64,000 nucleotides of DNA, from assembly GCA_963719035.1 (NCBI GenBank), contig CAVRAO010000002.1, forward strand, positions 228,144 to 292,143. The letters are read 5' to 3'. The DNA is from Methanobacteriota archaeon (lineage in GTDB: Archaea > Halobacteriota > Bog-38 > Methanoflorentales > Methanoflorentaceae). This document shows positions 1-64,000 of the stretch, piece by piece (positions within the stretch are counted from its first letter, which is position 1; every line of letters begins with the position of its first letter). The notes beneath the pieces were generated by a model. The model worked only from the letters and a program-made list of their open reading frames with translations. It ran no database searches and was not told where the DNA came from. The position numbers and the translations under genes are program-made.

Positions 1-445
1 CATGACAACGTTGAGCGTTTGAGGGTGGCCTGCCTCGAGCGCGAGGCGTGTTGCATCATACGCAATAACGCGCCCACACGTAGCTGCGAGCGCCTGGATC
101 AGACTTGCTACAGGGGGATAATCGCTTCCGGCAGCTGGCACGATATGCGTGTTGATAACAGCAGTTCCTTCAGACGAAAGATAGCGTGCGAATCGCAAGC
201 ACTCGGCAGGCTCCAAGCCAACGATGGCGTCTGCACTTCGCAATGGAATAAGTGGCCCGTACCGATGTGCCTATGCGGACGTGAACCTCAACAGTCCCCC
301 CTCGTTGTGCCATCCCGTGCGTCTCTGCAGAAATCACCTCGTAGCCCTCGCGCAAGGCTGTTTCGCCTAGCACCCCTGAAGCGAAAATGGAGCCTTGGCC
401 GCCGACGCCTACGATAATGCAATCAAATTTTTCATCTTGTGCCAT
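1..445 (-). CDS. iorB: Indolepyruvate:ferredoxin oxidoreductase beta subunit (IorB). Frameshifted, and the 3' end runs off the window start.
   Basis: The ORF 170..445 gives an IorB N-terminus (KFDCIIVGVGGQGSIF...HVRIG) and then diverges. The +1 frame continues with YGPLIPLRSADAIVGLEPAECLRFARYL...INTHIVP, which is typical IorB, down to position 1. There is an extra G near 262-263. Confidence 0.6.
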
Positions 446-454
446 AATGCATTC

Positions 455-2284
455 TCAAGCCGTTTTGATAGCGTCGAATTCGCAGATCTGCTCACACACA
501 CCGCAGCCAATACAGTCTTCCGAAATGTGGGCGCACGAGTCACTATAGCTGATCGATGGGCAAAAGAGCGTGCCACAAAGCATACAACTCGCAAAGTAGT
601 TCTTGCACGTTGAAGTAACTCGTTTTTTCGTCTTTGAAAGCGCCCCTGCTTTTTTGGCGCTAATTAAGCATGCGCGCCTTGCGATGACAACTTGTACGCC
701 GTCGCCGTCCTTAGCTTTGACGAATGCTTCTTCGGTTTCAGATAAGTTGTAGGGATCGACAACGTAGAGCCCCTGAACGCCAACGGCTTTAATGAGGTCT
801 TCCATAGGAGTCTGGAAGTTGCATGTTCCCGTTGCGGTCTCACCAGTGCACGGGTGGGGCTGATGGCCCGTCATTGCAGTTGTATTATTATCCAAAATGA
901 TAAGCGTCATTTTCGCTCCGTTATAAACGGCGTTAATCAATCCCGGAACGCCTGTGTGCACAAAGGTAGAGTCACCGATAACGCTCACTATTTCCCTATC
1001 CTCTCCGCAAGCAGCTGCAAATCCGCTGCCCATGCTGACGCTTGCGCCCATGCAAAGCGTGGTATCTATCGTCCCCTGACTCACGCCTAGGGTGTAACAT
1101 CCGATATCTCCCACATAGATTGCGGACTTCTTGAAAACTTTCTTCAACGAATAAAACGTTGCGCGATGAGGACATCCCGCACAGAGTATAGGCGGCCGAG
1201 AGGGGAGCGAATGCTCTACAGCGATTAATTCAACTGGAATGTTTGTTGTTACGAAACGGTCGATCGCCTGACCTAACCCCTTTAACACCAAGTCTACCGT
1301 GAGTTCACCTTCTCGAGGCACGTGTCCGGTGAGCTTCCCAAGCACCTCAACCGTGCCCGCTAGTGCGTTGACTTTCTCTTCAATTACGGGTTCGAGTTCT
1401 TCGATGACCAAAATCTTACGTGAGTTATTGATTAGTGCCACAATGGCGTCGTTATTCATAGGATAGGCGGCGATTCGCAATATGGAAGGCTCTAGCTGTA
1501 GTCTCATTACCGCCTCCTCAACATATTTTGCGGCCACGCCTGAGGTTACAACGCCAAGCTCAGACTTCTTAAGCTTAAGTCTGCTCAAGGAAGCGAGCTC
1601 AGAACGGAGAAGCGGTTGGAGTTTGTTCAGCTCTACATGCCGGAGGCGCGCATGAGCTGGTACCATGACCCATCTTTCGGGTTTTTTTTCGAAGCGTGCC
1701 AGCCGCTGGTCGCTGTGTTGACCGCTTAATATGACAGACGCTCGTGCATGCGAAACGCGGGTTGTCGGACGGAGTATGACTGGGATTTCGAATTGTTCAG
1801 ACAACTTGAATGCGTATTTTGTAAACTCATATGCTTCTTGCGGTGTTGATGGATCAAGGCATGGGATTTTTGCAAAGTACGCATATCTGCGCGAATCTTG
1901 CTCATTTTGAGAGGAATAACAGCCTGGATCATCGGCAACGACAAGCACAAGTCCGCCCTTGACACCGGTATACGCAAGCGTCATGAGCGGGTCGGCTGCC
2001 ACATTGAGGCCGACGTGTTTCATTATGACCGCCGCCCGTACGTTACAGTACGAAGCGCCGGCTGCGACTTCGAGAGCTACTTTCTCGTTGACTGACCACT
2101 CGACGTGTGGTGGCTTTTTATAACGCTCGACATTTCGAGCTATGAAAGGAATGATCTCAGATGAAGGCGTTCCCGGATAACCAGATACGACTGAAACACC
2201 AGCCTCCAATAAGCCGTGCGCGATTGCTTCGTTTCCTAAGAGGTACTTGCGACTACTTTGCTGCATGAGTTGTTGTCGATCCAA
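455..2284 (-). CDS. iorA: Indolepyruvate:ferredoxin oxidoreductase alpha subunit (TPP-binding, C-terminal 2x[4Fe-4S])
   Basis: 609 aa with a TPP-enzyme signature, a C-terminal CxxCxxCxxxC ferredoxin motif, and the adjacent iorB. Confidence 0.8.
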   Translation of the reverse strand: MDRQQLMQQSSRKYLLGNEAIAHGLLEAGVSVVSGYPGTPSSEIIPFIARNVERYKKPPHVEWSVNEKVALEVAAGASYCNVRAAVIMKHVGLNVAADPLMTLAYTGVKGGLVLVVADDPGCYSSQNEQDSRRYAYFAKIPCLDPSTPQEAYEFTKYAFKLSEQFEIPVILRPTTRVSHARASVILSGQHSDQRLARFEKKPERWVMVPAHARLRHVELNKLQPLLRSELASLSRLKLKKSELGVVTSGVAAKYVEEAVMRLQLEPSILRIAAYPMNNDAIVALINNSRKILVIEELEPVIEEKVNALAGTVEVLGKLTGHVPREGELTVDLVLKGLGQAIDRFVTTNIPVELIAVEHSLPSRPPILCAGCPHRATFYSLKKVFKKSAIYVGDIGCYTLGVSQGTIDTTLCMGASVSMGSGFAAACGEDREIVSVIGDSTFVHTGVPGLINAVYNGAKMTLIILDNNTTAMTGHQPHPCTGETATGTCNFQTPMEDLIKAVGVQGLYVVDPYNLSETEEAFVKAKDGDGVQVVIARRACLISAKKAGALSKTKKRVTSTCKNYFASCMLCGTLFCPSISYSDSCAHISEDCIGCGVCEQICEFDAIKTA

Positions 2285-2379
2285 TCAGCGTTGCCCTACG
2301 TTTTGGTGTCGTGTTAAATCAAAGTTTGTAGACTCGGCATTGACGCGTTGACTTCGAGATTGTCACCACATTGCGAATG

Positions 2380-3551: not shown

Positions 3552-3604
3552 GCAAAAACCATATATATGCACTTTTAACAAGAGGAATAGCGAGGAAAAT
3601 CGTT

Positions 3605-3889: not shown

Positions 3890-3914
3890 ATCAGTAAGAG
3901 CTTGTTAACTTCCA

Positions 3915-4036: not shown

Positions 4037-4111
4037 TAGCGGGGAGTGGATTTGAACCACTGGTCTACGGGTTATGAGCCCGTCGGGATCTCCTGACTAC
4101 CCCACCCCGCT
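4037..4111 (-). tRNA. tRNA-Met (CAU), probably the initiator tRNA
   Basis: A 75-nt cloverleaf with acceptor AGCGGGG/CCCCGCU, an A1:U72 pair, three G:C pairs closing the anticodon stem (ACGGG/CCCGU), loop CUCAUAA and T-loop UUCAAAU. No CCA is encoded. Confidence 0.8.
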
Positions 4112-6156: not shown

Positions 6157-7293
6157 TTGAAAACTAAATGTGGAGGATACGACATGAAGTCCATAATTGA
6201 AGACGCGCTTGCACGCGGCGCAAGCGACGAAAAAAGCGAATCACCGCAACGGTCCTATACCGTTGACCAAGAGCTCGAAGAAGTGCTCAAAACGCTACAA
6301 ACAAACATTATCGTTGTTGGATGTGGTGGTGCTGGATCTAATACTATAACGCGAATGATGGAAGAGGGGATAGAAGGAGCTGAACTAATTGCACTCAACA
6401 CGGACGCTCAGCACCTAAGGGGCACGATAGCCGATCGGAAAATCCTGATAGGAAAAGAGCGCACGCGCGGTCTCGGCGCTGGTTCACTTCCTCAAATAGG
6501 GGAAGAAGCCGCTCTCGAAAGTCAAGAGGAACTGCGCGCGAGCGTTGCCGGGGCGGACATGGTGTTTATTACCGCCGGGTTAGGCGGTGGAACGGGCACT
6601 GGTGCTGCGCCTGTCGTCGCAGAAGCGGCACGAGACGCCGGGGCTCTTACAATCGCTATCGTTACACTCCCGTTTAGCGTAGAGGGTATGGTGAGAAGAG
6701 CGAATGCCGAAGCAGGGCTCGAACGGCTTCGTGATATGGCAGATACGGTTATCGTCGTGCCAAACGACCGACTGTTAGAAGTGGTGCCTCGATTGCCACT
6801 ACAAGCTGCGTTTAAGGTGTCGGACGAAGTATTGATGCGAGCCGTTAAAGGTATAACCGAGCTTATCACTAAACCTGGGCTCATTAACCTTGATTTTGCT
6901 GATGTCAGAACCGTTATGCAAAGAGGTGGCGTAGCAATGATCGGGCTTGGCGAGTCTGATGCCGAGGACAAAGCCGTAGATTCAGTGAAGAAAGCCCTGA
7001 GAAGTCCACTATTGGACGTCGATATCTCAGGTGCTACTGCTGCCATAGTCAATGTCATAGGAGGCACAGATATGACCGTGACTGAAGCAGAAGGGGTCGT
7101 GCAAGAAGTTTATGAGCGTATCGATCCCGACGCGCGCATCATTTGGGGCGCACAGATCGATCCCGAGCTGGACCACATGGTGCGGACGTTGCTTATCGTC
7201 ACAGGGGTTAAATCACCTCAGATCTACGGTAAAAGTGAATCACTCAAGATAAAAACTGGGGCTGAAAGGTATGGGATAGACTTCGTCAAATAA
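6157..7293 (+). CDS. ftsZ: Cell division GTPase FtsZ
   Basis: GGGTGTG tubulin signature and NTDAQ motif. The start may be the internal Met at 6184. Confidence 0.9.
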
Positions 7294-7418
7294 GGACCCC
7301 AGCAGTAATCCTCCACAAAAAAATTTATACTATCGAGACGCAAAGTGATACCAAGCGTCGCCGCGGGCGCTGATATTCACTTTGCGCATTTTTGCTGCAC
7401 TAGTTTGGTGAATGTACG

Positions 7419-7880
7419 ATGGTTAAAAAACAGGGGACTTCTTCGTCCAAATCTAATAAACAACGAGAGCCCACCAAAGAAGAAAAAAAACGGGATGGTG
7501 GTGCGTCTAAGCCTTCGAAACCGCAAGAGGCCCAAAAAGAAGGTCGTTTCTCTCGAAAGGCGATCGAACGTAAGCTTGGTGAGTATCGAAGGATCTTAAC
7601 GTTGACAAGAAGGCCAACGCGCGAGGAGTTCTCTACGATTGCAAAGGTTGCTGCATTAGGGATTATCATAATCGGAGTGGCTGGTTTTCTGATATACTTA
7701 GCTATGGTACAAGTACCTGAGAGCTTAGGCGCGAACAATACGACGCAAGCGACGACAAGCTCTTCAACAAGCAACGAACAGGCTGTCATTCAGCAAATAA
7801 CCAACGCGACGGCTGAAATTAACAATGCCTCAGCAGCGAATAATGCGGGGACTGTGACTACGCAGTCAGTAGCTAGTTAG
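7419..7880 (+). CDS. secE: Preprotein translocase SecE (Sec61-gamma) with a Lys-rich N-terminal extension and an Asn/Thr/Ser/Ala-rich C-terminal extension
   Basis: Single TM helix IAKVAALGIIIIGVAGFLIYLAMV preceded by the KLGEYRRIL motif, in the conserved position upstream of spt5-L11. Confidence 0.7.
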   Translation: MVKKQGTSSSKSNKQREPTKEEKKRDGGASKPSKPQEAQKEGRFSRKAIERKLGEYRRILTLTRRPTREEFSTIAKVAALGIIIIGVAGFLIYLAMVQVPESLGANNTTQATTSSSTSNEQAVIQQITNATAEINNASAANNAGTVTTQSVAS

Positions 7881-7886
7881 TATCGA

Positions 7887-8378
7887 ATGGAGAGGAAGAT
7901 GTCTAGTCAGGAGCAAGATGAACTCGAATCTTCAATATACGCCATAAAGACTACGGCGAATCAAGAACGGGCAGTAGCTAACCTACTTGCACTCGCTGCT
8001 AAGAAGGAGAATTATGATATTCGGGCGATACTCGTCCCAAAAGAGCTTAAAGGGTATGTGCTCATCGAGACCAACGCGTTTGAAACGGTAGAGCAGGCAA
8101 TTCAAGGTATACCGCACGCACGCGGCGTGGTAAAGGGGAGTACTAAATTTGCAGAAATCGAACATTTCTTAACACCAAAGCCGGCGGTAGCGGGCATCGA
8201 AGATGGAGACATCATTGAGCTCATTGCTGGGCCTTTCAAAGGAGAAAGAGCCCGCGTAAAGCGAATTGACGAGCGCCGTGAAGAGATCACGGTAGAGCTT
8301 TTCGAAGCTATGGTGCCAATACCTATTACCGTACGCGGTGATAACGTGCGAGTGTTGAGCAAGGAGGAGCGTGAATAA
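7887..8378 (+). CDS. spt5: Transcription elongation factor Spt5 (NusG homologue)
   Basis: NGN and KOW domains, between secE and rpl11. The start may be a few codons downstream. Confidence 0.8.
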
Positions 8379-8379
8379 T

Positions 8380-8856
8380 ATGGTCGACGTAATCGAGATC
8401 TTGGTCCCTGGAGGCAAAGCGAGTCCCGGTCCACCGATAGGACCTGCTTTAGGACCACTCGGAATCAACATCAAGGCGGTCGTTGACGAAATAAACGAAA
8501 AAACTGCGTCATATAATGGCATGCAAGTGCCGGTGAAGGTCACTGTCGACGATAAAAAGAATGTGACGCTCGAAATAGGTATACCTCCAGCATCAGCTCT
8601 TATTCTTATAGAAGCAGGCATAGAGAAAGGATCGTCTGGCGAAGACACGGTGGGCAATATCAGCGTCGCCCAAGCAATTAAGATCGCAAAGCTGAAACAG
8701 TCGAACTCACTTTCGTACGAGCTTAAAAACACCGTTAAAGAAATCTTAGGGACTTGCGTGTCGATGGGCGTCACTGTTGATGAAAAGCCTGCAAAGGATA
8801 TTCAACATGCTGTAGACGCTGGTGAATACGCAGATCTGTTTGCTGAGGATTCTTAG
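8380..8856 (+). CDS. rpl11: 50S ribosomal protein L11
   Basis: GGKASPGPPIGPALGPLGIN is a signature. The track ORF starts at GTG 8371, and an ATG at 8380 is more likely. Confidence 0.9.
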   Translation: MVDVIEILVPGGKASPGPPIGPALGPLGINIKAVVDEINEKTASYNGMQVPVKVTVDDKKNVTLEIGIPPASALILIEAGIEKGSSGEDTVGNISVAQAIKIAKLKQSNSLSYELKNTVKEILGTCVSMGVTVDEKPAKDIQHAVDAGEYADLFAEDS

Positions 8857-8943
8857 ACGGCGAAAGATTGAAGTAAGGTTGCTCCATCTTTAGAATGTAC
8901 CGTAGGAGATCATAAACAAGGTCGACGATACTACGGAGGACAT

Positions 8944-9585
8944 ATGGTCAACGAAAATACCATAAGAGCGGTAAATGACGCCATTGAGTCAGCGCCGAAG
9001 CGGAAGTTCACTGAGAGCGTTGATCTTGTTGTCAATCTAAAGAACATTGATTTAAGCCAGCCGAAGAACCGGATTACAGAGTCGATAGTGCTTCCGAAAG
9101 GACGGGGCAAAGCGACAAAAATCGGCGTTTTTGCTAAGGGTGACCTCGCCATCAAATCACAAAGCGGTGGGGCAGATCTCGTAATTTCTCCTGAAGACAT
9201 TGATAAGATGAGTGGTGACAAGAAACTCATCAGATCAACTACGAGAGATATTGATTTTTTTGTTGCGGAAGCCCCACTGATGCCCTCTATAGGCAAGAGT
9301 TTCGGGCCGATTCTCGGTCCTAAAGGTAAAATGCCCGATCCTATCCCATCTAGTGCCGATCCAACGCCTCTTATAAATAGACTTAAGCGAACCGTAAAGG
9401 TTCGCACGAAAGACAAGCCAACGTTTCACGCCTTAGTCGGAAATCTGAGCATGAGCGTCGAAGACATTGCAGCTAATATTGAAGCACTTCTCAGTACCGT
9501 TGAGTCTAAACTTGACAATGGGACACAGAACATAGCCTCTGTCTATGTAAAGACGACTATGGGGCCTGCAGTGAGGCTGATATAA
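8944..9585 (+). CDS. rpl1: 50S ribosomal protein L1
   Basis: Family similarity and operon context. Confidence 0.9.
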   Translation: MVNENTIRAVNDAIESAPKRKFTESVDLVVNLKNIDLSQPKNRITESIVLPKGRGKATKIGVFAKGDLAIKSQSGGADLVISPEDIDKMSGDKKLIRSTTRDIDFFVAEAPLMPSIGKSFGPILGPKGKMPDPIPSSADPTPLINRLKRTVKVRTKDKPTFHALVGNLSMSVEDIAANIEALLSTVESKLDNGTQNIASVYVKTTMGPAVRLI

Positions 9586-10608
9586 ATGACCGTAGCTGAA
9601 AATGTGCACCGCCCAGCTTGGAAAGATGAGGAGATCAGTCGTATTAAAACCGACGTCAAAACGCACGATGTAGTCGCCGTAGTCAGTATCCAAGGTATTC
9701 CCGCACGCCAATTTCAGAATATGCGGGCAGAACTCAAGGACGTCGCTAAGATACAAGTGGCCCGTAATACCCTCATTCACCGCGCATTAGAGCAATCTGG
9801 CGAGTCGACGCTAAAGTTGTTTGAGAATGTCGAAGGACAAACAGCACTTGTCTTCACCAATCTCAATCCGTTCAAGCTTTTTAAGCTGATTGAGAGCAGC
9901 AAAACTCCTGCACCAGCGAAAGCGGGCGAGAAAGCGCCCCGAGACATAATCGTCGAAAAAGGACCTACATCTTTCAGACCCGGACCGATAGTTGGCGACC
10001 TCCAAAACGCTGGAATACCCGCCGCCATCGAGAAAGGCAAAATTGTAATACGTGAGACAAAAACGGTCGCGAAAACGGGTGAGCCGATCAGTGCACGGCT
10101 CGCCGACGTGCTTCAGCGCCTTGAGATCTATCCTATGGAAGTCGGTTTGTACCTTCGGGCGGCATACGACGGTGACGTTATCTATACTTCTGAAGATCTA
10201 AAAATCGACGAACAAGCCTACTTTAACCAGTTTGTATCCGCCGTCTCAAGCGCGCTTAATCTTTCAATTAATATAGGATATCCAACCTCACTAACCGTTG
10301 AAACGTTGCTTCAGAAAGGCACTTTTGAAGGAATGGCCCTCGCTTTGAAAGCTGAGATCTTTGAGCCAGAAGTGCTGAAAATTCTGCTCTTGCGGGCACA
10401 TAAGGTAGCAATGTTGCTTGTTAATGAACTTCCAAACGACGCGTTAGATGATGATTTAATCGCGTTAAAAGATGCCACTATGGCTCTGACTCAATCGGCT
10501 AAGGCTGAGCAGGCGGTGGAAGAGAAACAAACACAAGAGGACGAAGAGGCAAGCGAAACGAAGGATGCTGAATCGGGAATGGCCGGTTTAGGCGCGTTAT
10601 TTGAATAA
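9586..10608 (+). CDS. rpl10: 50S ribosomal stalk protein L10 (P0)
   Basis: 340 aa with an acidic C-terminus ending GLGALFE. Its start overlaps the L1 stop (TAAATG). Confidence 0.9.
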   Translation: MTVAENVHRPAWKDEEISRIKTDVKTHDVVAVVSIQGIPARQFQNMRAELKDVAKIQVARNTLIHRALEQSGESTLKLFENVEGQTALVFTNLNPFKLFKLIESSKTPAPAKAGEKAPRDIIVEKGPTSFRPGPIVGDLQNAGIPAAIEKGKIVIRETKTVAKTGEPISARLADVLQRLEIYPMEVGLYLRAAYDGDVIYTSEDLKIDEQAYFNQFVSAVSSALNLSINIGYPTSLTVETLLQKGTFEGMALALKAEIFEPEVLKILLLRAHKVAMLLVNELPNDALDDDLIALKDATMALTQSAKAEQAVEEKQTQEDEEASETKDAESGMAGLGALFE

Positions 10609-10643
10609 TTTGAAGATCACAACATAGTAAAGGTGATAGCGAA

Positions 10644-10964
10644 ATGGAATACGTATATGCAGCACTAGTTTTGAACGCAACAGGCAAAGAGGTAACTGAG
10701 GAGGGCGTTACGAACGTTCTCAGCGCAGCAGGCGCAACAGTGAATGAAGCGAGAGCCAAAGCACTTGTAGCAGCGCTCGAAGGCATTAATATTGACGAGG
10801 CCATATCTAAAGCGGCATTTACCGGGGCGCCCGCAGTAGCTGCACCGGCTGCTTCCGTACAAAAAGAAGAGACTGAAGAAGCGAAAGTCGAAGAAGATAA
10901 AGAGAAGGAGAAAGAGGAGGAAGAAGAAACAGGGATGGAAGGGCTAGGTGCCCTATTTGGGTAG
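10644..10964 (+). CDS. rpl12: 50S ribosomal stalk protein L12 (P1)
   Basis: Ala-rich with a Glu/Lys hinge and a C-terminal GLGALFG. Confidence 0.9.
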
Positions 10965-11153
10965 TCCTCCCCCGGAGACTAATCTTCCCGACATCCTATC
11001 TTTGGCGCTTTATTGATCCAAAACTTCGGCAGACATTTTCCGCGCGATCTTTCTGTCAGCCCAAAAGCAAGTCTACCGGGAGAGCTGTGCTATTAGGTTT
11101 AGCTAATGTAGCAAGAACGCCTTTATGCTATCATAACCTGCTGACGTTAACGA

Positions 11154-11859
11154 TTATCGCACGCCCAGCCTAGACGCTAAATCCAAACAATTCTTAGGCC
11201 CATATACATCATGGTTCCAGTAGCCGAAAACGTCTGCTTCGTTTGAAATCTCTCGGATTCGACGCACCCAGAAGTCTAGTTCTTCTGACGAGTAAACGTC
11301 CAGATCTCCACCTCGCGCGCGCCATCTGATGTAAGTAAAATTCTTAAAACAGTCGATGTTGTTGCCAAATTGTGCACCGAGTATTGCCAAAGAGAGGTTG
11401 CTTTGCCCTCTAAAACGGTCAAAAACATCGTCGCTAAACCACGAATCGTGACGAAATTCAAAAGCAAAACGATGGTCAGGTAAGAGTGAAAGAAACTCGT
11501 CTAGACGGTCTAAATCTTTTTTAAAGCTCGAGGCGAGCCCTACGAGAAACGGGCCCAGCTTGTGTCCCAATACCCCACAGATCTCAAAGAAGTCACTGAG
11601 AGCTCGGCGTGAGTCGTGCAGCCTCTTGGTGTGTGTGATATGCTTGTTCATCTTTACAGAAAACACAAAATCGTCAGGAGTAGAGTTGTACCAGTTTTTT
11701 TAGCTGACCTTCCTTCGGAAATTGATAAAACGTCGAATTAACTTCAACTGAGTGGAAAAATCGCGCGTATTGCTCCAGGTAAAGACGACGCGAGTTATAG
11801 AGGACGCCCAGCCAATGATCGTAATGCCACCCGCTGCAACCCAGATAGATGCTTGCCGT
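11154..11859 (-). CDS. DUF72 family protein with an anomalous start
   Basis: The reading frame is open from IYLGCSGWHYDHW...STFYQFP (a DUF72 N-terminal signature) to the stop at 11154. The expected start position carries ACG, directly preceded by TAA. The track ORF 11154..11666 is only the C-terminal part, starting at a GTG. Confidence 0.55.
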
Positions 11860-11963
11860 TTACTCACCCTACCCTATCGAGGCTCGACTACAAAGCAGTT
11901 CTATTGGATGAATAAAAAGCATTGCCAAGGTTTAATTAATCAAGAAGCCATAGGAGACCTGAG

Positions 11964-14102
11964 ATGGTATTGACAGAGGCAGACGCTCGTATAATCACCG
12001 AAGCACTTGGTCGCCAGCTGAATGAAGTCGAAGCTGCGATATTCGAGAATCTCTGGTCCGAGCACTGTGCCTATAGAACAAGCAAACCACTCTTACAAAC
12101 AATGCCCACCCAAGGGGAGTTTGTTGTTGTGGGTCCTGGTGACGATGCCGCTATCATTAAGTTGAGCGACGGACTTGCTCTTGCGATAGCGATGGAAAGT
12201 CACAATCATCCTTCGTACGTTGATCCATATGATGGGGCTGCCACCGGTGTGGGCGGAATCGTTCGCGATGTAATTTCGATGGGAGCTCAGCCAATAGCCC
12301 TCATGGATTGTCTCTATTTTGGAAGTTTGGAGAAGGAGAAAAATCGGTACCTATTTGAGCACGTCATTCAAGCAATTAGCGACTACGGCAACTGTATAGG
12401 GGTGCCTGTTGTTAACGGAGAAGTCTTCTTTCATCCGAGCTATGATGGAAATCCACTCGTTAACGTTGTTTGCGTCGGCCTTTGCCAACTTGATAAATAT
12501 GTTACTGGCCGCGTAAAAAAGCCTGGCAGTAAAATCATTCTTATCGGGTCAACTACAGGCCGGGACGGCTTGGGTGGCGCATCGTTTGCTTCGCGCGATC
12601 TCAGTGAAGAATCTGAAGCTTCTGATAGGCCGTCTGTCCAAATTGGCGACCCTTACACCGAAAAACTGCTCATCGATGCGACGCTTGAAGCAGTCAACCA
12701 AGGTTACGTTCTAGCGTGTCGCGATCTCGGCGCTGCTGGTTTGTCAGGTGCTTCCGCAGAGATGTGTTCTACATTTGGCGGGCGGATAACGCTAGACGCC
12801 ATTCCTTTACGAGAGACCGGAATGACTCCTCGAGAGATATTAGTTTCAGAGTCACAAGAACGCATGGTTTTCGAGGTTTCGCCTGAACACGTTGTCGATG
12901 TGCTTGCCATTGCCAGCAAGTACGATTTGAACGGCGCCGTCATTGGCGAAGTGATCGAAGAACCCAGCTATGTCGTTGAGTTCGGTGGGAGTATAGTAGC
13001 GCATATACCGATAAAACTGCTAACTGAAGGGGCGCCACTTTGCACACCAAAGTGCCCAGAGGTATTGCCGCATACTAAAAAGCCTGCGGTTCATGGAGTG
13101 ACGCTTCAAGAAAAGGCACTGAGCGTACTAACCTCGCCAAACGTTGCTTTAAAAGAGTGGGTTTACAGCCAATACGATCACGAGGTTCAAACGCGAACCG
13201 TTGTCAAACCAGGCGCAGGGGCGGCAGTTATCTCGATCGACGCTTCTCGAGGTATTGTGCTATCTTCTGGCTGTAACGCTACACAAGTGGCAGTAGATCC
13301 ATTTAACGGAGCCGCTGCTACTGTTTTAGAAAATGCAATGAATTTAGCGGTCAAAGGTGCAATGCCCGTTGCGCTCGTCAATTGTCTTAACTTCGGTAAC
13401 CCTGAAAAGGGAGAGATTTTTTTCCAACTTGAACAAGCTGTAAACGGACTCTCTTACGCAGCACACATTATCGAGACGCCCATCGTTGGGGGAAATGTTT
13501 CGCTCTATAATGAAAGCGAAGAGTTCCACACCGCTATAATCCCTACACCGTCAATCGGGATGGTAGGAATTCTCAAAAACGTCTCTAAGGTTCCCTCAGC
13601 TTTTTTCAACCGCGAAGGCGACACCATAGTAATGGTAGGCGAAACGTATCCCGAATATGGGGGATCAGAGTTCGCGGAACTCTTTGGATTAGATGGCTTC
13701 GTTCCAAAGCCACGTGCAGATATCAAGAAAAACATCGAAGCGCTAGTGGAAACTATAGAAACCGGGAAGATCTCAGCTGCTAACGATATTGGACGCGGGG
13801 GTATCTTAAGCACCCTTGCACATATGTGCACACTTTTTGGCGCTAGAGTTGACCTTTCTCACGTTCTAGCAGAAGAGAACGAGTTATTTTCCGAGACGTC
13901 TGGAAGAGCGATCGTGTCTGTCAATAGCAAAGACCTCACCTCTATTCTAAACTTGTTTAAAGAGCGAGATGTTCCGTTTGCTTCTATTGGAACTGTCGGC
14001 AACGATAGCCTCTCTATAGTAATTGGTGATAACACGCTAACGCTCCCGTTAGCAATTATCAAGCGGAGTCTAAATTCTCTCAATGATAGCATGATAGGTT
14101 AA
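11964..14102 (+). CDS. purL: Phosphoribosylformylglycinamidine synthase II
   Basis: 712 aa with the AIR-synthase-related duplicated domain architecture. Confidence 0.85.
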
Positions 14103-14137
14103 AGAGATCTTGCACGCGTGGCGCAACTACATCCACC

Positions 14138-15142
14138 ATGTTGAGCGTTAACTTGATTTATGGAACGTACGGCGAGAGCGGCATTCTCACTAGCATTGAA
14201 AATACGAAACGGATGTTAAAGCTTCTAGAGCCAGACGGCGTGCGCTTCTATACAAACGCATTCAAAATTTGCGACTTATTGCACGCGCACACGTTCGGAC
14301 CGATCGCTGTTTTGTTAGTACTCTTTCACAAAGCATTGCACAAAACAGTGATATTGCACGCGCACACGACGCCACAAGATGTGACGAACAGTTATTTTGC
14401 GGCAAATTTAATCAGCGTCTGTTTAAAAGGTTATCTACACCTCTATTACAATCTAGCAGATGTCTGTATTGTTCCTTCCGCACACACTAAGGACGTACTT
14501 ATAAAAACGCTCAAAATTAAGCGGAGAATTGAAGTTATCAGTAATGGCATTGATTCGAGCCTATACGTGTGCAATGGGAAGTTGTCTTCAGAATTTAAAG
14601 CGGATTACGATTTGGACGACCGACCAGTGGTGCTCTCATTAGGATTAGTTTTTTTGCGGAAAGGCATCGTTGATTTTGTCACCGTCGCGAAGCGATTACC
14701 GCATTTTCAGTTTGTGTGGGTAGGGAGAATCGTGACATGGCCGTTCTTTCCCCGAGCTGCTAGAAAAGTGATCACAACGGCTTCTAAAAATGTACTGTTT
14801 ACCGGCAGAGTGAGCAGTATTTGTCAAGCTCTCAGTGCAGCTGAAGTCTTTGTTTTTCCCAGCTACGAGGAGAATCAAGGGATTGCTGTTCTTGAAGCAG
14901 CTGACTGCGGTTTACCTCTAATCTTGCGCGATCTACCAGTTTATAGCGACTTCGTCGACGGGCAAAATTGTGTCAAATTCACGACAATTGATGGATTTGA
15001 AAGCGCAATCAAAGAACTCATTAAACACAAGACAGTTGCAAAAGCGCTGGGAGAAAACGCACGAAAGACCGTTCAAATCCACGATGTCCGTGTGCTGAGT
15101 AAAAGGCTGCTCCAAGTCTATCAAACGGCGAAACGGGCTTAA
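14138..15142 (+). CDS. Glycosyltransferase family 4. The N-terminal domain looks short.
   Basis: C-terminal GT4 motif FPSYEENQGIAVLEAADCGLPLI. Confidence 0.6.
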   Translation: MLSVNLIYGTYGESGILTSIENTKRMLKLLEPDGVRFYTNAFKICDLLHAHTFGPIAVLLVLFHKALHKTVILHAHTTPQDVTNSYFAANLISVCLKGYLHLYYNLADVCIVPSAHTKDVLIKTLKIKRRIEVISNGIDSSLYVCNGKLSSEFKADYDLDDRPVVLSLGLVFLRKGIVDFVTVAKRLPHFQFVWVGRIVTWPFFPRAARKVITTASKNVLFTGRVSSICQALSAAEVFVFPSYEENQGIAVLEAADCGLPLILRDLPVYSDFVDGQNCVKFTTIDGFESAIKELIKHKTVAKALGENARKTVQIHDVRVLSKRLLQVYQTAKRA

Positions 15143-15236: not shown

Positions 15237-16406
15237 TTGCACGTAGGTGAAGCTTTAATTGGCAACGATCCTGAAATGGCCCACGTCGACCTCCTTATAG
15301 GAGACAAGGATGGTCCGGTAGGGCAAGCATTTGCTAGTGGATTATCACACCTTTCTCAGGGGCACACCCCTCTTCTTGCTGTGATTAAGCCAAATTTGTT
15401 AACAAAGCCTGCAACTCTCATCGTGCCTAAGGTCACGCTGCAAGACAGAGAACAGATAGCGAAGGTGTTCGGCCCCGCTCAAGCTGCTGTTGCCAAAGCA
15501 GTCGCGGACTCTGTCGAAGACGGAGTTATCGCAAAGGAAATGTGCGAGCAATACGTACTTATCGTATCAGTCTTTGTTCATCCGGATGCGCAGGACTATG
15601 AAAAAATCTACCGTTATAACTACGGTGCTACGAAATTGGCGATAAAACGGGCATTAACCGACTTTCCTTCGGTGGAAAAAGTTCTCTACGAAAAAGACCG
15701 GTCGCTCCACCCGGTTATGGGATTCAAAGTCTCTCGTCTGTGGGATCCGCCATACCTGCAAGTAGCATTCGATTTGACTGAGTTAGACTTAGTATTGAAC
15801 GTTCTTGATCAACTGCCTATAAGCGATCATATAATTCTTGAAGCAGGAACGCCCCTTATCAAACGTTATGGGCTAGGAATCATCAGAGAAATGCGAAAAG
15901 CTCGATCGAGTGCCTTTATCGTAGCTGACCTTAAAACACTTGATACTGGGAACTTAGAAGCGCGATTGGCCGCGGATGAAGCTGCTGATGCCGTTGTGGT
16001 CTCTGGACTTGCGCCTACATCAACGATTGATAAGGCTATAGAAGAAGCAAACAAGACCGGTATCTATGTTATTATCGATATGTTAAATGTCGACAAGCCA
16101 GAAAGCGTACTCAAGGCGCTGAAGAGCAAACCCGATATCGTAGAACTCCACCGAGCGATCGACGCCGAGGATACGGCGCACGCGTGGGGCAACATCGCTA
16201 CCATAAAGAAATACGCAAAATTAGTCGCTGTAGCAGGAGGGATACGACAAGACAACGTAGAAGATGCTCTGAAGTCGGGAGCGGACATTTTGGTAGTAGG
16301 ACGTGCCATTACAGCAGCACGAGATGTAGAAGGTTCTGCACGGGTGTTTCTAGAAGGATTAAAGCAGAGCGATATCGATCAATACCGGGTTAAAACTGAC
16401 TTTTAG
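15237..16406 (+). CDS. fae-hps: Bifunctional formaldehyde-activating enzyme / 3-hexulose-6-phosphate synthase (Fae-Hps)
   Basis: N-terminal Fae signature ([20 protein letters not shown]) fused to an OMP-decarboxylase-fold Hps domain, 389 aa. Confidence 0.8.
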
Positions 16407-21635: not shown

Positions 21636-22688
21636 CTACCCAAAGTACTCTTTCAAGTCTGACGCCACTTTTTCTGGCATAGACTCGACGATAACCTCTT
21701 CATGAAGTCTTTCCATGAAACCCGAGTCGTTATTGTAGTAGCCCTGCGGGTACGGCCGAGCGATGATCCGCGCGACGAGTCTGAAGCTCTCATCCTTGCC
21801 TGAAGCCGAGAACGTGCTTAGATTGAAACTATGTACTCCATACAAAGTATATGCAGTGAAAACTCTTTTTAGGCCCTTGCTGAAGTCAGAAATAGCAGTT
21901 TCATCAAGCTCGTACAACGATGAGATGTCGTGAAACACCCCGCAGATTTCATCATTACCAAGGGGTACGTAACTTGTGATCCAAGAGAGGCTACCGATTT
22001 TCCCCAGAAACCTTTCCCCTTCTTTTTCCTCAATTTCGAGCAAGCGCTTCCAATAATTTTCCTTGTGTTTCTTGAAGTATTTTTCACATTCTGATAAATA
22101 TAGCCAAGCTAGGTTCGTCGGTTGCTCATCTACAGTAAGTTGAACGTGCGGATGGACGACGCTCGCACCCGCTGGTGGTAAGAAATTCCAACTGAAGATT
22201 GGGAACACGGCTTTCTTATCGCTTAACGCAACCACACGGAAGTACTCGATACTTGCTTTAACAGTATCTTGAATCTGCTTCAACGTAAACTCGTCAATCC
22301 CTAAAAAATGCTCTTTCGATACCGTTGCTACGGCATGATACTTCGCAAATGGAAACAAGTTTGGAAAGACTGTTGTTTCGCCGACCTTGATCCTTCCCTC
22401 AGGCACTAAACTCGAAGGAAACATTGGCGTATTGGTCTTTATATTTGCGGGACAAAAATAGCAATTCTTTGTAGATAGGTCAATCAACTCCGAGTACCCT
22501 GTGCCAGTTTGTGCCTGCTTCTTCCTCTCAGATCGTTTGACATTGATTCGGCACGCACGGCTGGTAAGGAGCTCTTTTCGGTACTCAATTTTTTGCCTCT
22601 CTAAGAGAAAGTCACACGTCGGATTGCGTAGCTCAGACTCGATTAACCTCTTAGAGAACAGATCTCGCAGAATTATGACCTCCAGCAA
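21636..22688 (-). CDS. Galactose-1-phosphate uridylyltransferase-like HIT-family nucleotidyltransferase
   Basis: HPHVQ (HxHxQ) HIT motif and a CxxC zinc site, 350 aa. Confidence 0.6.
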   Translation of the reverse strand: MLEVIILRDLFSKRLIESELRNPTCDFLLERQKIEYRKELLTSRACRINVKRSERKKQAQTGTGYSELIDLSTKNCYFCPANIKTNTPMFPSSLVPEGRIKVGETTVFPNLFPFAKYHAVATVSKEHFLGIDEFTLKQIQDTVKASIEYFRVVALSDKKAVFPIFSWNFLPPAGASVVHPHVQLTVDEQPTNLAWLYLSECEKYFKKHKENYWKRLLEIEEKEGERFLGKIGSLSWITSYVPLGNDEICGVFHDISSLYELDETAISDFSKGLKRVFTAYTLYGVHSFNLSTFSASGKDESFRLVARIIARPYPQGYYNNDSGFMERLHEEVIVESMPEKVASDLKEYFG

Positions 22689-33473: not shown

Positions 33474-33656
33474 TTGAGGTGATGCGGCTGGTGCTTATCC
33501 ACTCAGTCAAAGTTTCCCCACCTTAATTTTTTTTACGCTTGCGTCATTAGAGTATCAAAGACGCGATACGACGCAGAAGACGTGAAAGTCGATATTGGCC
33601 TTCTGCAGGTTGTTTTTTAAAAGATTTTTTATAGATTGAGGGTAGATTCGACAAAG

Positions 33657-44380: not shown

Positions 44381-44729
44381 CGTTATGCACGATTCGATCG
44401 GCCATAATAGTAACGCGCTCGCTACGAGTCTTTTTGACGATCTGCATCAAAAATGCTCAAACGAAAAATAGAAGTTAAAAGAGCTACAGTGTGTTGCTAG
44501 ATACTATGGACGAAATCGATTTAGCAGCAGAGAAACCCTTGCAGTTTAAGAAAATTAACGAGGTTTCGATGAGTATAGGAACGGTCATAATAAGCGTGCG
44601 AAGTACTGACGAATCTCTCGACAAGGTGAAGGATACCACTTTCGAAATCCTGGGCAAGGTACAAGGAAAAAGCTCACCCGAACATAACTACTAAGCAAAA
44701 TCGCTGCCTTTTGTCTATGCGGTCTTTTT

Positions 44730-45092
44730 TTGCCATCAGAAAATTTAAAAGACTTGATGCCTTCAGATCCAAAAACAACAACAGAGCTTAGAAAGACGCT
44801 GAGCGGAATTACTGAGCTATGTGCTTTGCTAGAAAGCACGTTAGACCGATCTCTGACTGAACCCTATATCGACGCAAATCAGTTCATCTCAAAGTACAAC
44901 CATTTTCGTAACAACCTGTTTTTACTGCAGCCAGATGATGTCATAGAGGAGATGCTGACTGAGATGCCCACGTACGTCTACACTGGCGACGATGCAGCCG
45001 ATGTAGTAAATGTCAAACAACTTCTAGTTGAGGTATACCTCAAAAATTCGCAACTTATGGCGTATCTTCAAAATCTGCTTGAACTTGGTTGA
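44730..45092 (+). CDS. Hypothetical protein
   Basis: 120 aa ORF with no family I recognise. Confidence 0.3.
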   Translation: MPSENLKDLMPSDPKTTTELRKTLSGITELCALLESTLDRSLTEPYIDANQFISKYNHFRNNLFLLQPDDVIEEMLTEMPTYVYTGDDAADVVNVKQLLVEVYLKNSQLMAYLQNLLELG

Positions 45093-45128
45093 TTGCGATA
45101 GTAAACTCCTGGCTTTGATGGTTTTATA

Positions 45129-45265
45129 CGCCGGGGTTGGGATTTGAACCCAAGCGATGCGTCCTCTATAAAAGCCCCGCAGGCTTTTCTATGCAAGGCA
45201 TCAACAGGTCTCGAGCCTGCCGCGTTGGGACTCGTTGCCGATTAGTCCGCTCTGCCACCCCGGGC
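45129..45265 (-). tRNA. tRNA-Ser(CGA)-like gene of 137 nt, carrying about 50 nt of non-canonical inserted sequence that may be introns
   Basis: A perfect T-arm (UUGGG-UUCAAAU-CCCAA), acceptor 3' CCCCGGC with G73, a Ser-type D-arm (GAGCGGACUAA) and a canonical anticodon arm GCAGG-CUCGAGA-CCUGU. The 5' acceptor reads GCCCGGGG, one C too many. Confidence 0.55.
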
Positions 45266-45318
45266 ATGCGCACTGATGTGCGTGCTTCTTATAGCAAAAC
45301 TCCTATAAAGATTATTGG

Positions 45319-45531
45319 ATGCCAAAAGAACACCTCTGTGTCACCGTAGAGCTGAAAGGACAGGCACAAGAAGTGAATTTGCCTTTGGGTTCAGACTACG
45401 AGCGATTGCTAAGTGAACTCAAATTAAATTCTGAAGAGGTTCTTGTTTTTGTAGAGAATGAGGCAGTCCCCTTCGACGCTCCCGTGCAACCAGGGATTGT
45501 ACGTGTGTTAAAAGTCGTTTCCGGCGGTTAA
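45319..45531 (+). CDS. ThiS/MoaD/SAMP-like ubiquitin-fold sulfur-carrier protein with a C-terminal GG
   Basis: 70 aa with a beta-grasp pattern, ending ...VLKVVSGG. Confidence 0.6.
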   Translation: MPKEHLCVTVELKGQAQEVNLPLGSDYERLLSELKLNSEEVLVFVENEAVPFDAPVQPGIVRVLKVVSGG

Positions 45532-45561
45532 ACAAGAAGATTGATTTAACACTTACTAACC

Positions 45562-52331: not shown

Positions 52332-52622
52332 TCACTTATAGAAGTAGTAGAGCAATGGCAGTCCCGCAATAAGGCACGCAGCTGCGAAGCCCAATGCAAA
52401 CCCGAGTATCGAGTTCCCCCCGTACCCCGAGTCAAGCTTGAGCGTTCGTGTCGTGATTAGCGCACGATACCTTATGTCGTTCATGAGATCGTCTAACAAT
52501 GCCATGCTCGGCGCCATGGGTTTAGCTATGCCCTGGTCGAAGTCAATGACTGATGTGGGTGCGACCTCTTCGCCGGCTGCTGCCGGCCCTTCGCCGCCCC
52601 CTCCAAAACGTTCTGCTGCCAT
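52332..52622 (-). CDS. mtrF: Tetrahydromethanopterin S-methyltransferase subunit F
   Basis: 96 aa with a C-terminal TM helix, in the operon position. Confidence 0.7.
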   Translation of the reverse strand: MAAERFGGGGEGPAAAGEEVAPTSVIDFDQGIAKPMAPSMALLDDLMNDIRYRALITTRTLKLDSGYGGNSILGFALGFAAACLIAGLPLLYYFYK

Positions 52623-52630: not shown

Positions 52631-53341
52631 TCAAGCTAGGGCTAGTAACCCCAAGATTCCGATTGAAATCAGCAGCCCGATCACAATACCCTCAACCTTT
52701 CCAGCGTAAACGCCGGCAGCGTACTTGTTCAAGTTGCCGATGGTCTTCATGTGGAACTGCAGACCCTGCACGCGGGCTTGTATCGCTGCTATTTCTGCTG
52801 CCATAGGGGCCTCTACAAGGGCCTCCTCGGTTTCTTTTTCTTTAAGCTCAACGACGACTGGAGGTTCCGGGTAAGCTCCGGGATCTCGTCCAATCAGCTC
52901 CTTAACCTTCGCGGATATCGCGCTGACATCCTCGTTGTTAATCATGCTGAAGAATTCGACCTGCTTTTGGAACCTTTCAAGGTGCTCTTCGTTCAAGTTT
53001 TCGATGAACGGTATAGCCCCTTGAGCATCGATTATGCGTCCTTCCTTAACGCCGTTCTTGTACAGTGCCTCCAGAGATTGTCCGGTCACGTGACCCATGA
53101 TTTCTGAGCCGCAGAGGATCAGAAATCGTATGTTCGGATTCGAGATGATGTTTACTATGACCTTCTCGAGGCCGATGTTCTCGGTCTTCGCCGTGCCCTC
53201 GATCGCTGCTCCTTGGTCAGTGAAGAGTTTGCCGAAGTGAGACCCTAAGGTCACCACAGCGACGGAACTCTCCGGATCTCCAAAGAAGAAATCTCCCTTG
53301 ACGACCGGCCAGTTAGGCGCAGGTGCAACTTTTTCTGCCAC
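52631..53341 (-). CDS. mtrA: Tetrahydromethanopterin S-methyltransferase subunit A (corrinoid-binding)
   Basis: NWPVVKGDFFFGDPESSVAVVTLGSH...NPNIRFLILCGSE with a C-terminal TM anchor. Confidence 0.9.
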   Translation of the reverse strand: MAEKVAPAPNWPVVKGDFFFGDPESSVAVVTLGSHFGKLFTDQGAAIEGTAKTENIGLEKVIVNIISNPNIRFLILCGSEIMGHVTGQSLEALYKNGVKEGRIIDAQGAIPFIENLNEEHLERFQKQVEFFSMINNEDVSAISAKVKELIGRDPGAYPEPPVVVELKEKETEEALVEAPMAAEIAAIQARVQGLQFHMKTIGNLNKYAAGVYAGKVEGIVIGLLISIGILGLLALA

Positions 53342-58196: not shown

Positions 58197-58394
58197 ATAT
58201 CCACCTGCTAATGCAATAAGATGAGATTTACCACGCGCACTAATAAAGGTAAGGTATTACATTGGTCTTGGCACTTTAAAGATGGACCAATGGATGTTTT
58301 TCTCAACTGCATCAAAAAAAGGGGGGAGCTTTCAGCTAGACTTTACTCCCGTACCGTTTTTCAGTACAATCTCGTCTAACTATCCGATATTTCT

Positions 58395-58754
58395 TACGGC
58401 GACATTACGTGTGTTGAGTTCACTGGAAGTCTGAAAATTGTATAGCGCTTGCCTGCAAGCCCAGTAGCGAGTGCTTGCGTAATACTCTCTGCCTTCGCCT
58501 CTTTCACAACCATGTTAACCTGTATAGCCCTCTCAGTATGGTCTCGTATCGCCTCGATGGCCATTTCAGCTTCCTCTTTGATAACAAAGCCAGCCCAGTT
58601 CTGAGGGGAGACGCCCCGGTACCTCGATACAATAAAACCCCGTTACGCTCTGTTCGGTAAGGATATTTACAGTCCTTCCAAGGGTTTCATAATCTACAAA
58701 AACGTTTAAAAGGACTTTTGGCACGCAGTCACGCTCCTTCAGGTTTGAGATCAA
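58395..58754 (-). CDS. Small hypothetical protein split between two frames. Frameshifted.
   Basis: ORF 58566..58754 (MISNLKERDCVPKVLLNVFVDYETLGRTVNILTEQSVTGF...) continues in another frame as ...VSPQNWAGFVIKEEAEMAIEAIRDHTERAIQVNMVVKEAKAESITQALATGLAGKRY... to a stop at 58395. The switch is near 58640, among G/C runs. Confidence 0.35.
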
Positions 58755-58969
58755 TGGCTATATGCAACTTGTTCTATATGTTTTCTCCCTTGAAGGAAGG
58801 GGGGGGAATTGCTTGAGCGATCGCGCGATAGTCGAACTAACTTGTGATCGTCTCGTGACGTTGGCTTAAGTATGAAGCTTTTCCATTTGACAACCCGCTT
58901 TCTATCATTTACAGGCTAAAACCGGCTTTTTTACAGTAACGTTAAATAAGTATATATCGGAGTGAGAGC

Positions 58970-61905: not shown

Positions 61906-62213
61906 CTATGCGTTAACCCCTCCTTATTAAGCGTGTTAACCTGATCGATAATCTCGTTCTATCTTCGAGCAGGCGCTTGACCTTGCGCAGGGTCTCTTCA
62001 GCGTCCATCGCATTGGCAAAGGTCCAATTCCTTCGCTGGAGGCCTTTTACGCATTAGCTTAGTTTTACTTAACGCTACATCAATAAGAAGGTAGCAAGCG
62101 CGCTCAATGATCCTCGCATCATCAACGTGAGAAGAATATAAAAACGATCACTTGTCTTTATCATCCCAGAATGAAGGGTTTTTTCTGGCCTGGCGATTCA
62201 CGCAAATGTTTGT

Positions 62214-63431
62214 TTAGCGATGTCTCGCCCGCGAGTATGCAAAGATAGTAGCTATTAACGCGATCGCAAGGAATGCACCTTCTACGCCGAATCCAGGCGT
62301 TGACGTTTGTGATGCTGCACTCGTGAGGTTAGATGACTGCGTGGATGCTGTAGATGCAGAAGGAGATGATGAAGCTGCATTGGTTACTCCTATGTCCGTA
62401 TACTTCTCAAAAGGCTGAACCAATGGGTACTTATCGCCAGACACGGAAGCGGCGCTACCAATCCCTGTCCCATTGGCGTCACTACCCTTGTAATCTGAGA
62501 AGTAGTTGCCCATATACCCGATATGTGTCGCACCGCCAAACGTGTAAGGGAGCTGCTGTGGCGAGTTCAACACGATCCCTTGCACATCGCTTATGGAGTT
62601 TGGCTGGCTCACGAAGTTATTTAGGTAGATCTGGTCCCCGGTCTCCGTGATAGAGAGAATCCCCAGGTTAACGTTCCCGCTGACGGTGTTAAAGGTGAGT
62701 GTGTTATTGTTCGACTCGCGGAGCCGGACGCCGATGTCTTGGTTGTTGAGTATAGAGTTGTTGGTAATCGTGTTGCCGGATGAGTGATAGAGTGAGATGC
62801 CAAAGACGTGGTTGGCACTAAGGTTGGTGTGGGTGATCGTGTTGGTGTCGGAGTAGTACATATAGATGCCATCGCCGAGCGTCTTTCCATCACCTTGCTC
62901 GCCCGTTGCAATGTTACTCGATATAGTGTTGTTTGACGCGTTATCACAGTAAACGCCATATCCGTTATCGGCAAGATTGCTTGAGCTCACCTCGCAATTC
63001 GTAGCGCCATCGAGATAGATGGCGCGATCGTTTGCGTGAGCGCTGATGCCAGTTACAACACATGCTGAACTGTGATCGACGTGAACACCCGAGGCGCCCG
63101 TCGCTCCTGTGATTGTCAATCCTTCTAGGCGAACGTTCTTCGCTTGCACGAGAAACACATCTTTGCTCGGATCTGCCGCGGCAACTACAACTGATCCTGG
63201 ACTGGCGGCCTTAATGGTGACTGACTTCGTCACGATTACATTCTCGGTGTAAGTGCCGGCACTAATGGTGATCGTGTCGCCGGGTTGGGCGGTGTTGATC
63301 GCTCCAGTGATGGATGTGTATTGACCTCCTGAGCCAACATTTAGCGCGGCGCCGTTAACTGAAACAGCGAGAGTGCATAAGAGTAAACATAAGACTAAAA
63401 TGCTTAAAAGAGGGGCTGCAATCTTATTCAC
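62214..63431 (-). CDS. Secreted right-handed beta-helix (PbH1/NosD-like) surface protein with a Ser/Thr-rich linker and a PGF-CTERM archaeosortase sorting signal
   Basis: N-terminal signal peptide and repeated PbH1-like beta-helix turns. A C-terminal S/T-rich stretch is followed by PGFGVEGAFLAIALIATIFAYSRARHR. Confidence 0.7.
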   Translation of the reverse strand: MNKIAAPLLSILVLCLLLCTLAVSVNGAALNVGSGGQYTSITGAINTAQPGDTITISAGTYTENVIVTKSVTIKAASPGSVVVAAADPSKDVFLVQAKNVRLEGLTITGATGASGVHVDHSSACVVTGISAHANDRAIYLDGATNCEVSSSNLADNGYGVYCDNASNNTISSNIATGEQGDGKTLGDGIYMYYSDTNTITHTNLSANHVFGISLYHSSGNTITNNSILNNQDIGVRLRESNNNTLTFNTVSGNVNLGILSITETGDQIYLNNFVSQPNSISDVQGIVLNSPQQLPYTFGGATHIGYMGNYFSDYKGSDANGTGIGSAASVSGDKYPLVQPFEKYTDIGVTNAASSSPSASTASTQSSNLTSAASQTSTPGFGVEGAFLAIALIATIFAYSRARHR

Positions 63432-63710
63432 AAGGAGCCATCTCGGGAGAATACTTTTTTTTCGAAACTCTTGAAATTATTACGCGTTAGATTCCTAGCT
63501 CGCCTAATTGGAAAGACCCCAATACGAGCAAACTGTTACGCACGAACTCAGTATCGCTCTGACCATATAAGTCTTACCCAGATGAGATATCTTAATACAG
63601 TTATCAGGTTAAGAAGTAATATATTCATAAACGCTATATAATTTAGCATAATTCAAAAGCGAGAAGAAGCATCGCCAAAGTGCTTTCAGTACGGGACAAG
63701 GATCGGTTAA

Positions 63711-64000
63711 ATGAAAATTGAAGATGTGCTTGAAGACGCCGACGACAAATTATACAAGGTAAAGAAGCTGCTGGACGAAAGCAACGAGATCGTTGACCGA
63801 ATCAAGTCCCTTAAAGCCGAAAGAGCGCAGCTAAAACCTCTCCCTGGCTCACTTCGCAGGCGAATGATAAAGTGTGGCAAAAAGAGCTGCAGGTGTAGGA
63901 AAGGACAACTGCACGGCCCGTACTGTTATTTTGCGCCGTCAAAATGCCGAGGAAAATGGCAATATATATCGGTAGAGGATCTAAAAAAAGTTGAACAAGG
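63711..64000 (+). CDS. Partial ORF (5' part only) with a Cys-rich motif CGKKSCRCRKGQLHGPYCYF
   Basis: ATG at 63711, open to the window end. It is not in the ORF track because there is no stop. Confidence 0.3.
   Translation, partial: MKIEDVLEDADDKLYKVKKLLDESNEIVDRIKSLKAERAQLKPLPGSLRRRMIKCGKKSCRCRKGQLHGPYCYFAPSKCRGKWQYISVEDLKKVEQ

Follow-up and report, generated by a model that had tools for sequence, protein, structure and literature searches.

The question raised by this locus is why five conserved genes should each be interrupted by one extra nucleotide (nt) within a single stretch of archaeal DNA. The stretch, hereafter the window, comprises 64,000 nt of a methanogen genome (contig CAVRAO010000002.1 of assembly GCA_963719035.1, positions 228,144 to 292,143), and holds five single-base (+1) insertions, in iorB, gatA, a GT4-family glycosyltransferase gene, valS and a gene for a PII-like protein. 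An initial annotation, made from the letters of the window, had noticed the five +1 frameshifts, had judged real pseudogenisation implausible and had attributed the lesions to homopolymer indel error. Our analysis showed that the insertions are artefacts of the present assembly and that they are specific to the tetranucleotide GTAC. The explanation we favor, to which we assign a probability of about 0.9, is that the five frameshifts are GTAC-linked consensus errors in a long-read assembly, probably arising through modification of GTAC.

Each of the five broken genes carries exactly one lesion, with both halves of the gene still conserved (Table 1), and deletion of one base restored in each case a full-length protein with a contiguous Pfam match, in which the residue recovered at the junction is the Tyr of all orthologues (IPSY, LARY, DITY, TSYG). 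After a one-base repair IorB has a contiguous POR domain, and its orthologues all read G[TS]S[YF]GPL at the junction. Repaired GatA has 458 amino acids (aa) with a contiguous Amidase domain at 7-440, and the repaired glycosyltransferase has 418 aa with a contiguous GT1/GT4 Pfam match, its orthologues reading DITYMVVG across the junction. Repaired ValRS has 888 aa; an intact 888-aa protein of the same species (P0122) carries the predicted ...IPSYSLH..., and eight full-length 888-aa proteins fall within the same 90% cluster. The repaired PII-like protein, of 119 aa, covers positions 2-105 of the 107 of PF10126 (E=1e-36), with Nit_Regul_Hom at residues 13-116. The lesions were thus found much where the initial annotation had seen them (263, 30553-30555, 32237-32238, 39228 and 58623); for the last, which had been described as a small gene broken near 58640, the frameshift is real, the position was about 20 nt off, and the gene is the PII-like PF10126 gene. 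A protein-guided frameshift scan of 27-51 kb of the window against 36 related loci found exactly three frameshifts, those of gatA, the GT4 gene and valS, and none besides. In the rest of the window, Pfam coverage brought out one more split gene, DUF72. Overlapping open reading frames (ORFs) at 22651-22688 were considered as a sixth frameshift and rejected, the upstream 'ORF' being an AT-rich promoter-like leader with a TATA-like box and no Pfam match.

Table 1. Features of the window, and positions at which it differs from the Logan contigs (run ERR11561443)
Feature	Position (nt)	Strand	Remark
iorB (indolepyruvate:ferredoxin oxidoreductase beta)	1-445	-	cut by window start
iorB lesion	263		GTAC 259-262, then extra C 263; coding strand ...ACA TCG-G-TAC GGG...
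gatA (Glu-tRNA(Gln) amidotransferase A)	29661-31038	+	false +1 frameshift
gatA lesion	30553-30555		GGG, true GG, directly before TAC; GTAC 30555-30558; coding ...GCT CGG-G-TAC TGT...
GT4-family glycosyltransferase	31714-32971	-	false +1 frameshift
GT4 lesion	32237-32238		TT inside GTAC (window GTTAC); coding ...ATA ACG TA-A-C ATG...
valS (valyl-tRNA synthetase)	37679-40346	-	false +1 frameshift
valS lesion	39228		GTAC 39224-39227, then extra C 39228; coding ...CCG TCG-G-TAC TCA...
PII-like gene (PF10126, Nit_Regul_Hom)	58394-58754	-	false +1 frameshift
PII-like lesion	58623		GTAC 58619-58622, then extra C 58623; coding ...ATC GAG-G-TAC CGG...
Intergenic T9 run	31184-31192		one base longer than T8 of same-species short-read contigs
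Intergenic T8 run	33527-33534		one base longer than in same-species short-read contigs
Intergenic G8 run	58799-58806		one base longer than in same-species short-read contigs
Logan difference	30553		Logan correct (intact gatA), window wrong
Logan difference	31077		Logan drops C after GTAC; window and four JGI contigs agree
Logan difference	58621		Logan drops A inside GTAC; third version of PII-like site, also wrong
Logan differences	8719 and 59352		Logan substitutions directly flanking GTAC
DUF72 gene	11154-11859	-	outside the GTAC artefact
tRNA-Met (CAT)	4037-4111	-	ARAGORN; only tRNA in window
mtrEDCBAFGH	51.1-56.1 kb		methanogen marker (Pfam)
FtsZ-SecE-Spt5-L11-L1-L10-L12 cluster			Pfam
Fae-Hps, YcaO-TfuA, IorAB, GatCA, ValRS			further markers (Pfam)

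For all five sites, contigs of the species from independent assemblies were available for comparison (97.9-99.9% nt identity to the window); most are JGI or ENA MEGAHIT-style assemblies of different samples. The results showed that the five insertions are absent from 26 of 26 such contigs. The iorB site reads CCCGTAC-GATG in 8/8 contigs, from eight samples, and the gatA site is CTCGGTACTG in 7/7, namely six from JGI and one from Logan (ERR11561443), with CGG-TAC in the sister species. At the GT4 site the insertion is absent from 2/2 contigs, the sequence being CATGTACGT in L164 (99.7% identical) and CATGTATGT in L163. For valS it is likewise absent from 2/2: the JGI contig L162 is 99.58% identical to the window over 7.9 kb, with its sole gap at 39228, and L161, from an NCBI metagenome-assembled genome (MAG), agrees with L162. 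The PII-like site reads CCCCAGTAC-TCG in 7/7 JGI/ENA contigs. Position 58618, which flanks the GTAC of the PII-like gene, is G in the window and A in all seven independent contigs (Trp to Arg), and this G is probably a second miscall beside the same GTAC. The comparison with orthologues in sister genomes, which the initial annotation had recommended, was also run, and relatives at 62-96% aa identity (closest loci 80-95% nt) lack the insertions and read a Tyr codon in frame at every one of the sites. Since the insertions are absent from independent same-species assemblies, they are errors of the present assembly, in agreement with the initial judgement that no real pseudogenisation is involved, and the true iorB, gatA, GT4, valS and PII-like genes are intact.

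GTAC adjoins or contains every insertion (5/5 sites), the change being from GTAC to GTACC (GGTAC on the other strand) four times and to GTTAC/GTAAC once. Using the best independent same-species contig for each position, 35,009 nt in all were compared, and over this length the window showed 152 substitutions and nine indel events, all nine of them window insertions. GTAC is touched by 5/9 of these events, and 5/78 covered GTAC sites (6.4%) are affected. GTAC with 1-2 nt on either side makes up 1.5-1.8% of positions, which gives P ~1e-7 for five of nine indels falling there; of the remaining four, three belong to T7-T9 runs and the fourth changes the length of a T5 run by 2 nt. These figures bear directly on the cause that had been proposed at the outset, a plain error of homopolymer length on a flow-based or single-molecule platform, in which the motif would play no role. 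It is true that every extra base is a copy of the one beside it (C to CC, GG to GGG, T to TT), and that the window is also one base longer than short-read contigs in the long runs T9, T8 and G8. However, the true run lengths at the iorB, gatA, GT4, valS and PII-like sites are 1, 2, 1, 1 and 1, so that the insertions lengthen runs of 1-2 bases to 2-3, a range in which such errors are rare, while hundreds of equal or longer coding runs are unaffected and GTAC stands at all five sites. Runs of 3-5 bases or more, in which classic homopolymer errors occur, were found at none of the five coding sites, and a length difference in such a run was confined to the T8, T9 and G8 runs between genes and a T6/T7 polymorphism in a DUF72 gene (see below); the excess in T9, T8 and G8 is a classic long-homopolymer length difference, in intergenic DNA only. 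The five lesions are therefore like the homopolymer errors of long-read MAGs in that genes are falsely split in two ORFs, and the window's T8, T9 and G8 are real examples of such errors; they are unlike them in that they lie in 1-2-base runs and are set by GTAC rather than by run length. Neither the homopolymer context nor the homopolymer cause could be upheld for the coding lesions, and we regard this origin as very improbable.

A second assembly pointed to the same tetranucleotide. Run ERR11561443 is represented by three Logan contigs, which match the window at 99.86-99.98% identity and have the same T7 allele in DUF72; the run is probably the read set behind the window's assembly. In 12.4 kb the Logan contigs and the window differ at 10 positions, and 5/10 are at most 1 nt from a GTAC (Table 1), with substitutions and deletions among them, a clustering that a plain homopolymer error would not give. 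At the PII-like site the Logan contig reads CCCGGT-CCTCG, which is neither the window's version nor that of the other contigs. Unstable base calls at GTAC would produce precisely such disagreement between two assemblies at this motif.

The remaining way to take the insertions at face value is to suppose that they are real in the sequenced strain, either as recent pseudogenisation (for example through damage to GTAC by a PabI-type restriction glycosylase) or as sites of +1 frameshifting at NNG-G-UAC. All five insertions do lie in one codon frame, the extra base standing before or inside an in-frame Tyr UAC after a G-ending codon; the GT4 site gives a zero-frame UAA stop, as in +1 sites of the prfB type; and the DUF72 gene shows that true gene decay occurs in the population. 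Against this, 0/26 same-species contigs carry any of the five, relatives at 62-96% aa identity have none, valS and gatA are essential and have a single lesion each, and in the Logan assembly of the near-identical read set gatA is intact and the PII-like gene has another defect. The sites resemble programmed +1 frameshifting (prfB, Ty1/Ty3, antizyme) in having one extra base after which the protein continues in +1, and in the zero-frame stop of the GT4 gene. Unlike such sites, they lie in five unrelated genes, are not conserved within the species and have no slippery or rare codon. Programmed frameshifting was rejected on several counts: the site is unconserved from 62% aa up to 99.9% nt identity; the zero-frame codon at four sites is GUA, which is a common Val codon (257/1,191, 22%) and therefore offers no hungry-codon pause; and the P-site codons UCG, CGG and GAG are unable to re-pair in +1, with UAA found only at the GT4 site. 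We give almost no credence to real insertions of either kind, and no more to a lineage-specific recoding in which full-length ValRS, GatA and the others would be made by +1 decoding at NNG-G-UAC (Tyr) sites.

For GTAC-linked consensus error the following course of events is proposed. The archaeon would carry a base modification in GTAC, e.g., N6-methyladenine (m6A, as GTm6AC) or N4-methylcytosine (m4C), and its native DNA would have been read by single-molecule sequencing, most probably with Oxford Nanopore. Modified GTAC would be miscalled, the basecaller and polisher resolving the altered signal as an extra base, which would survive assembly and polishing at only a small share of the sites (about 6% of GTAC). 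The window's own C-terminal fragment of valS (P0130, 475 aa) is recorded on an 816,197-nt contig (NCBI/ENA), the length of which therefore points to a long-read metagenome assembly. There is precedent for errors of this kind, as with default nanopore models about 70% of the errors in the consensus fell at the Dcm motif (CCWGG; Wick et al. 2019, PMC6591954), and lineage-specific GCAGC and GCTGG modifications degraded nanopore assemblies of Listeria, for which Modpolish was described (Chiou et al. 2023, PMC10687267). Like the Dcm and GCAGC/GCTGG errors, those of the window follow one short motif and survive consensus and polishing, and they are likewise lineage-specific, gone in short-read data and visible against close relatives. 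An archaeal precedent for a modified base in every GTAC is provided by M.PabI/R.PabI of Pyrococcus abyssi, in which M.PabI makes GTm6AC (PMC10273834); a modified GTAC, with m6A or m4C, is what the error pattern suggests in the present case. We lean slightly toward the more far-reaching proposition that the error pattern reports modification of every GTAC in this methanogen and exposes an undescribed, insertion-type failure of nanopore basecalling and polishing.

Several points weigh against modification-linked error at GTAC. The sequencing platform and the link between run ERR11561443 and the window's assembly are inferred. No methyltransferase gene was found within the 64-kb window by Pfam annotation of its ORFs. 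In published nanopore data, errors due to modification mostly take the form of mismatches (PMC10687267), the Dcm and GCAGC errors being mismatch-dominated, unlike the +1 insertions at GTAC of the window, where the modification would have to be read from the errors themselves; substitutions at GTAC showed no enrichment (3/152 vs ~2 expected), and insertions only were in excess. The errors strike only about 6% of GTAC sites, and a search for a longer motif around these (e.g., GTACGA, CGGTAC) yielded no rule, since about 25 unaffected sites share the flanks. The five insertions are all in the G|TAC (Tyr) frame, which an error at the level of DNA would not predict; among intact coding GTAC sites 52% are in this frame, which gives P ~0.04 for five of five, and the common frame is thus weakly unusual. 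To these may be added two neutral items, namely that GTAC is not avoided (observed/expected 0.92) and that a test for loss of GTAC sites against 80-92% relatives, with 7 conserved sites and 2 changed, had too few sites for power.

Related MAGs helped to weigh the possibility that basecalling or polishing is biased at k-mers containing GTAC whether or not the DNA is modified. GTAC specificity by itself needs no modification, and the absence of a methyltransferase from the window's Pfam annotation suits such a bias, which should make GTAC-linked frameshifts common in all nanopore MAGs. A set of 160 related loci (2.4 Mb) was surveyed for frameshifts, with support by at least four orthologues required; raw indel lists of Microflora Danica MAGs against short-read relatives had proved noisy in intergenic DNA, and protein-guided frameshift detection was used instead. 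Most hits were junctions of adjacent genes rather than lesions. The true lesions were concentrated in MAGs of Microflora Danica (two in L012, four in L056 and two in L066), which are Nanopore-only and were assembled with Flye plus one round of Medaka (PMC12313526), and frameshift density was higher in nanopore-only than in short-read MAGs; the remaining true lesions were in short-read contigs, in T6-T8 runs. The two frameshifts of L012 (OY970258.1, MFD04408.bin.c.2; 8801-8821 and 9504-9532) are backed by 38-47 orthologue ORFs. A C6 run holds one of them, and the other, at CAG-TAC-C-GAA in an FAA-hydrolase gene, is of the window's GTAC-C type, a 96%-identical short-read relative reading GAG-TAT-GAG. 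With this one clear case in L012, none of four frameshifts in L056 at GTAC, and no GTAC frameshifts in the related nanopore loci L004, L006 and L013, a modification-independent k-mer bias fits poorly, and on this indirect evidence we consider it unlikely.

L056 (MFD05674.bin.2.42) has 4 orthologue-supported frameshifts at 6573-14194, none at GTAC, and L066 (MFD02416.bin.2.52) has 2, at 9391-9403 and 16175-16188; these 4 and 2 frameshifts, found within 22 kb, are mostly away from GTAC, and these MAGs may have other error-prone motifs. A frameshift of L066 at CTCGGTACTC was considered as a further GTAC case and left unused, as the extra base cannot be placed with certainty and GTAC may be missing from the true sequence. 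In three short-read contigs of another methanogen group (L112 5953-5972, L115 13990-14008 and L120 8521-8542) one and the same gene is frameshifted at a T7-T8 run (CAACTTTTTTTGGC), which may reflect either a slippery run that is truly conserved or an error that recurs.

The consequences are those of quality control rather than of novel biology, of which there is none: with the five genes intact there is nothing on genome reduction or recoding to explain. False frameshifts occur in the window about once per 13 kb, in every case at GTAC, in keeping with the initial expectation that other ORFs of the assembly are falsely split; extrapolated from five events in 64 kb to a 2-Mb genome, this amounts to about 150 falsely split genes. 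Gene counts, estimates of completeness and of pseudogenes, and the reconstruction of metabolism would all be skewed by such false splits. Repair is simple, either by scanning GTAC for adjacent ORFs in different frames or by motif-aware or reference-based polishing, and the result is useful as an assembly quality-control flag. As an indirect hint, the error pattern also predicts GTAC modification in an uncultured methanogen lineage.

The DUF72 gene showed that some lesions in such assemblies are real and that each needs an independent same-species check. The initial annotation had reported ACG in place of the expected ATG and had ascribed it to the same error process. The ACG is present at the expected start (11857-11859), where the family has an N-terminal Met, and an in-frame TAA immediately precedes it; both are identical in L180 (JGI), L181 (ENA) and L171 (Logan). 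The ACG is common to independent same-species contigs and is therefore no assembly error. The gene has in addition a +1 frameshift, missed by the initial annotation, in a T7 run at 11695-11701; its Pfam match is without the N-terminus, and a repaired N-terminal piece spans the junction. T7 is also read in L181, an ENA k141 assembly, and T6 in L180, and L181 has two further 1-nt deletions. Lesions that recur in independent assemblies and are joined by further lesions, as in a genuine pseudogene, were thus found in DUF72 and in none of the five genes, and DUF72 is probably a genuine decaying pseudogene that is polymorphic in the natural population. The T7 run is 3 nt from a GTAC (11688-11691), a nearness that we take to be coincidence. 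The extra C that had been reported in a tRNA acceptor stem was not borne out, as tRNA-Met has a full and perfect 7-bp acceptor stem (AGCGGGG/CCCCGCU) and scores 63.2 bits against the Rfam tRNA model.

The Pfam annotation, which covered about 70 ORFs, identified the content of the window as that of a methanogenic archaeon (Table 1). The nearest genomes are MAGs of uncultured 'Halobacteriota/Methanomicrobia archaeon' from fens, bogs and Danish soils, and the source community is of peat or soil type. A segment at 44490-45540, conserved and non-coding in appearance, corresponds to three small genes called in L161, among them a 70-aa gene for the ubiquitin-like SAMP2 at about 45319-45531; in the spacer upstream of it (45260-45262) the window has GGG and L161 has GG. 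The SecE/Sec61-gamma homologue (7419-7880) is unusually long at 153 aa, its N-terminus being rich in Lys and its C-terminal tail in Ser, Thr and Asn, and the long ORF is judged real, since a 153-aa gene is also called in three independent contigs. In MtrA (52631-53341, 236 aa) the C-terminal 50 residues weakly match MtrF, for which there is a separate gene at 52332-52622.

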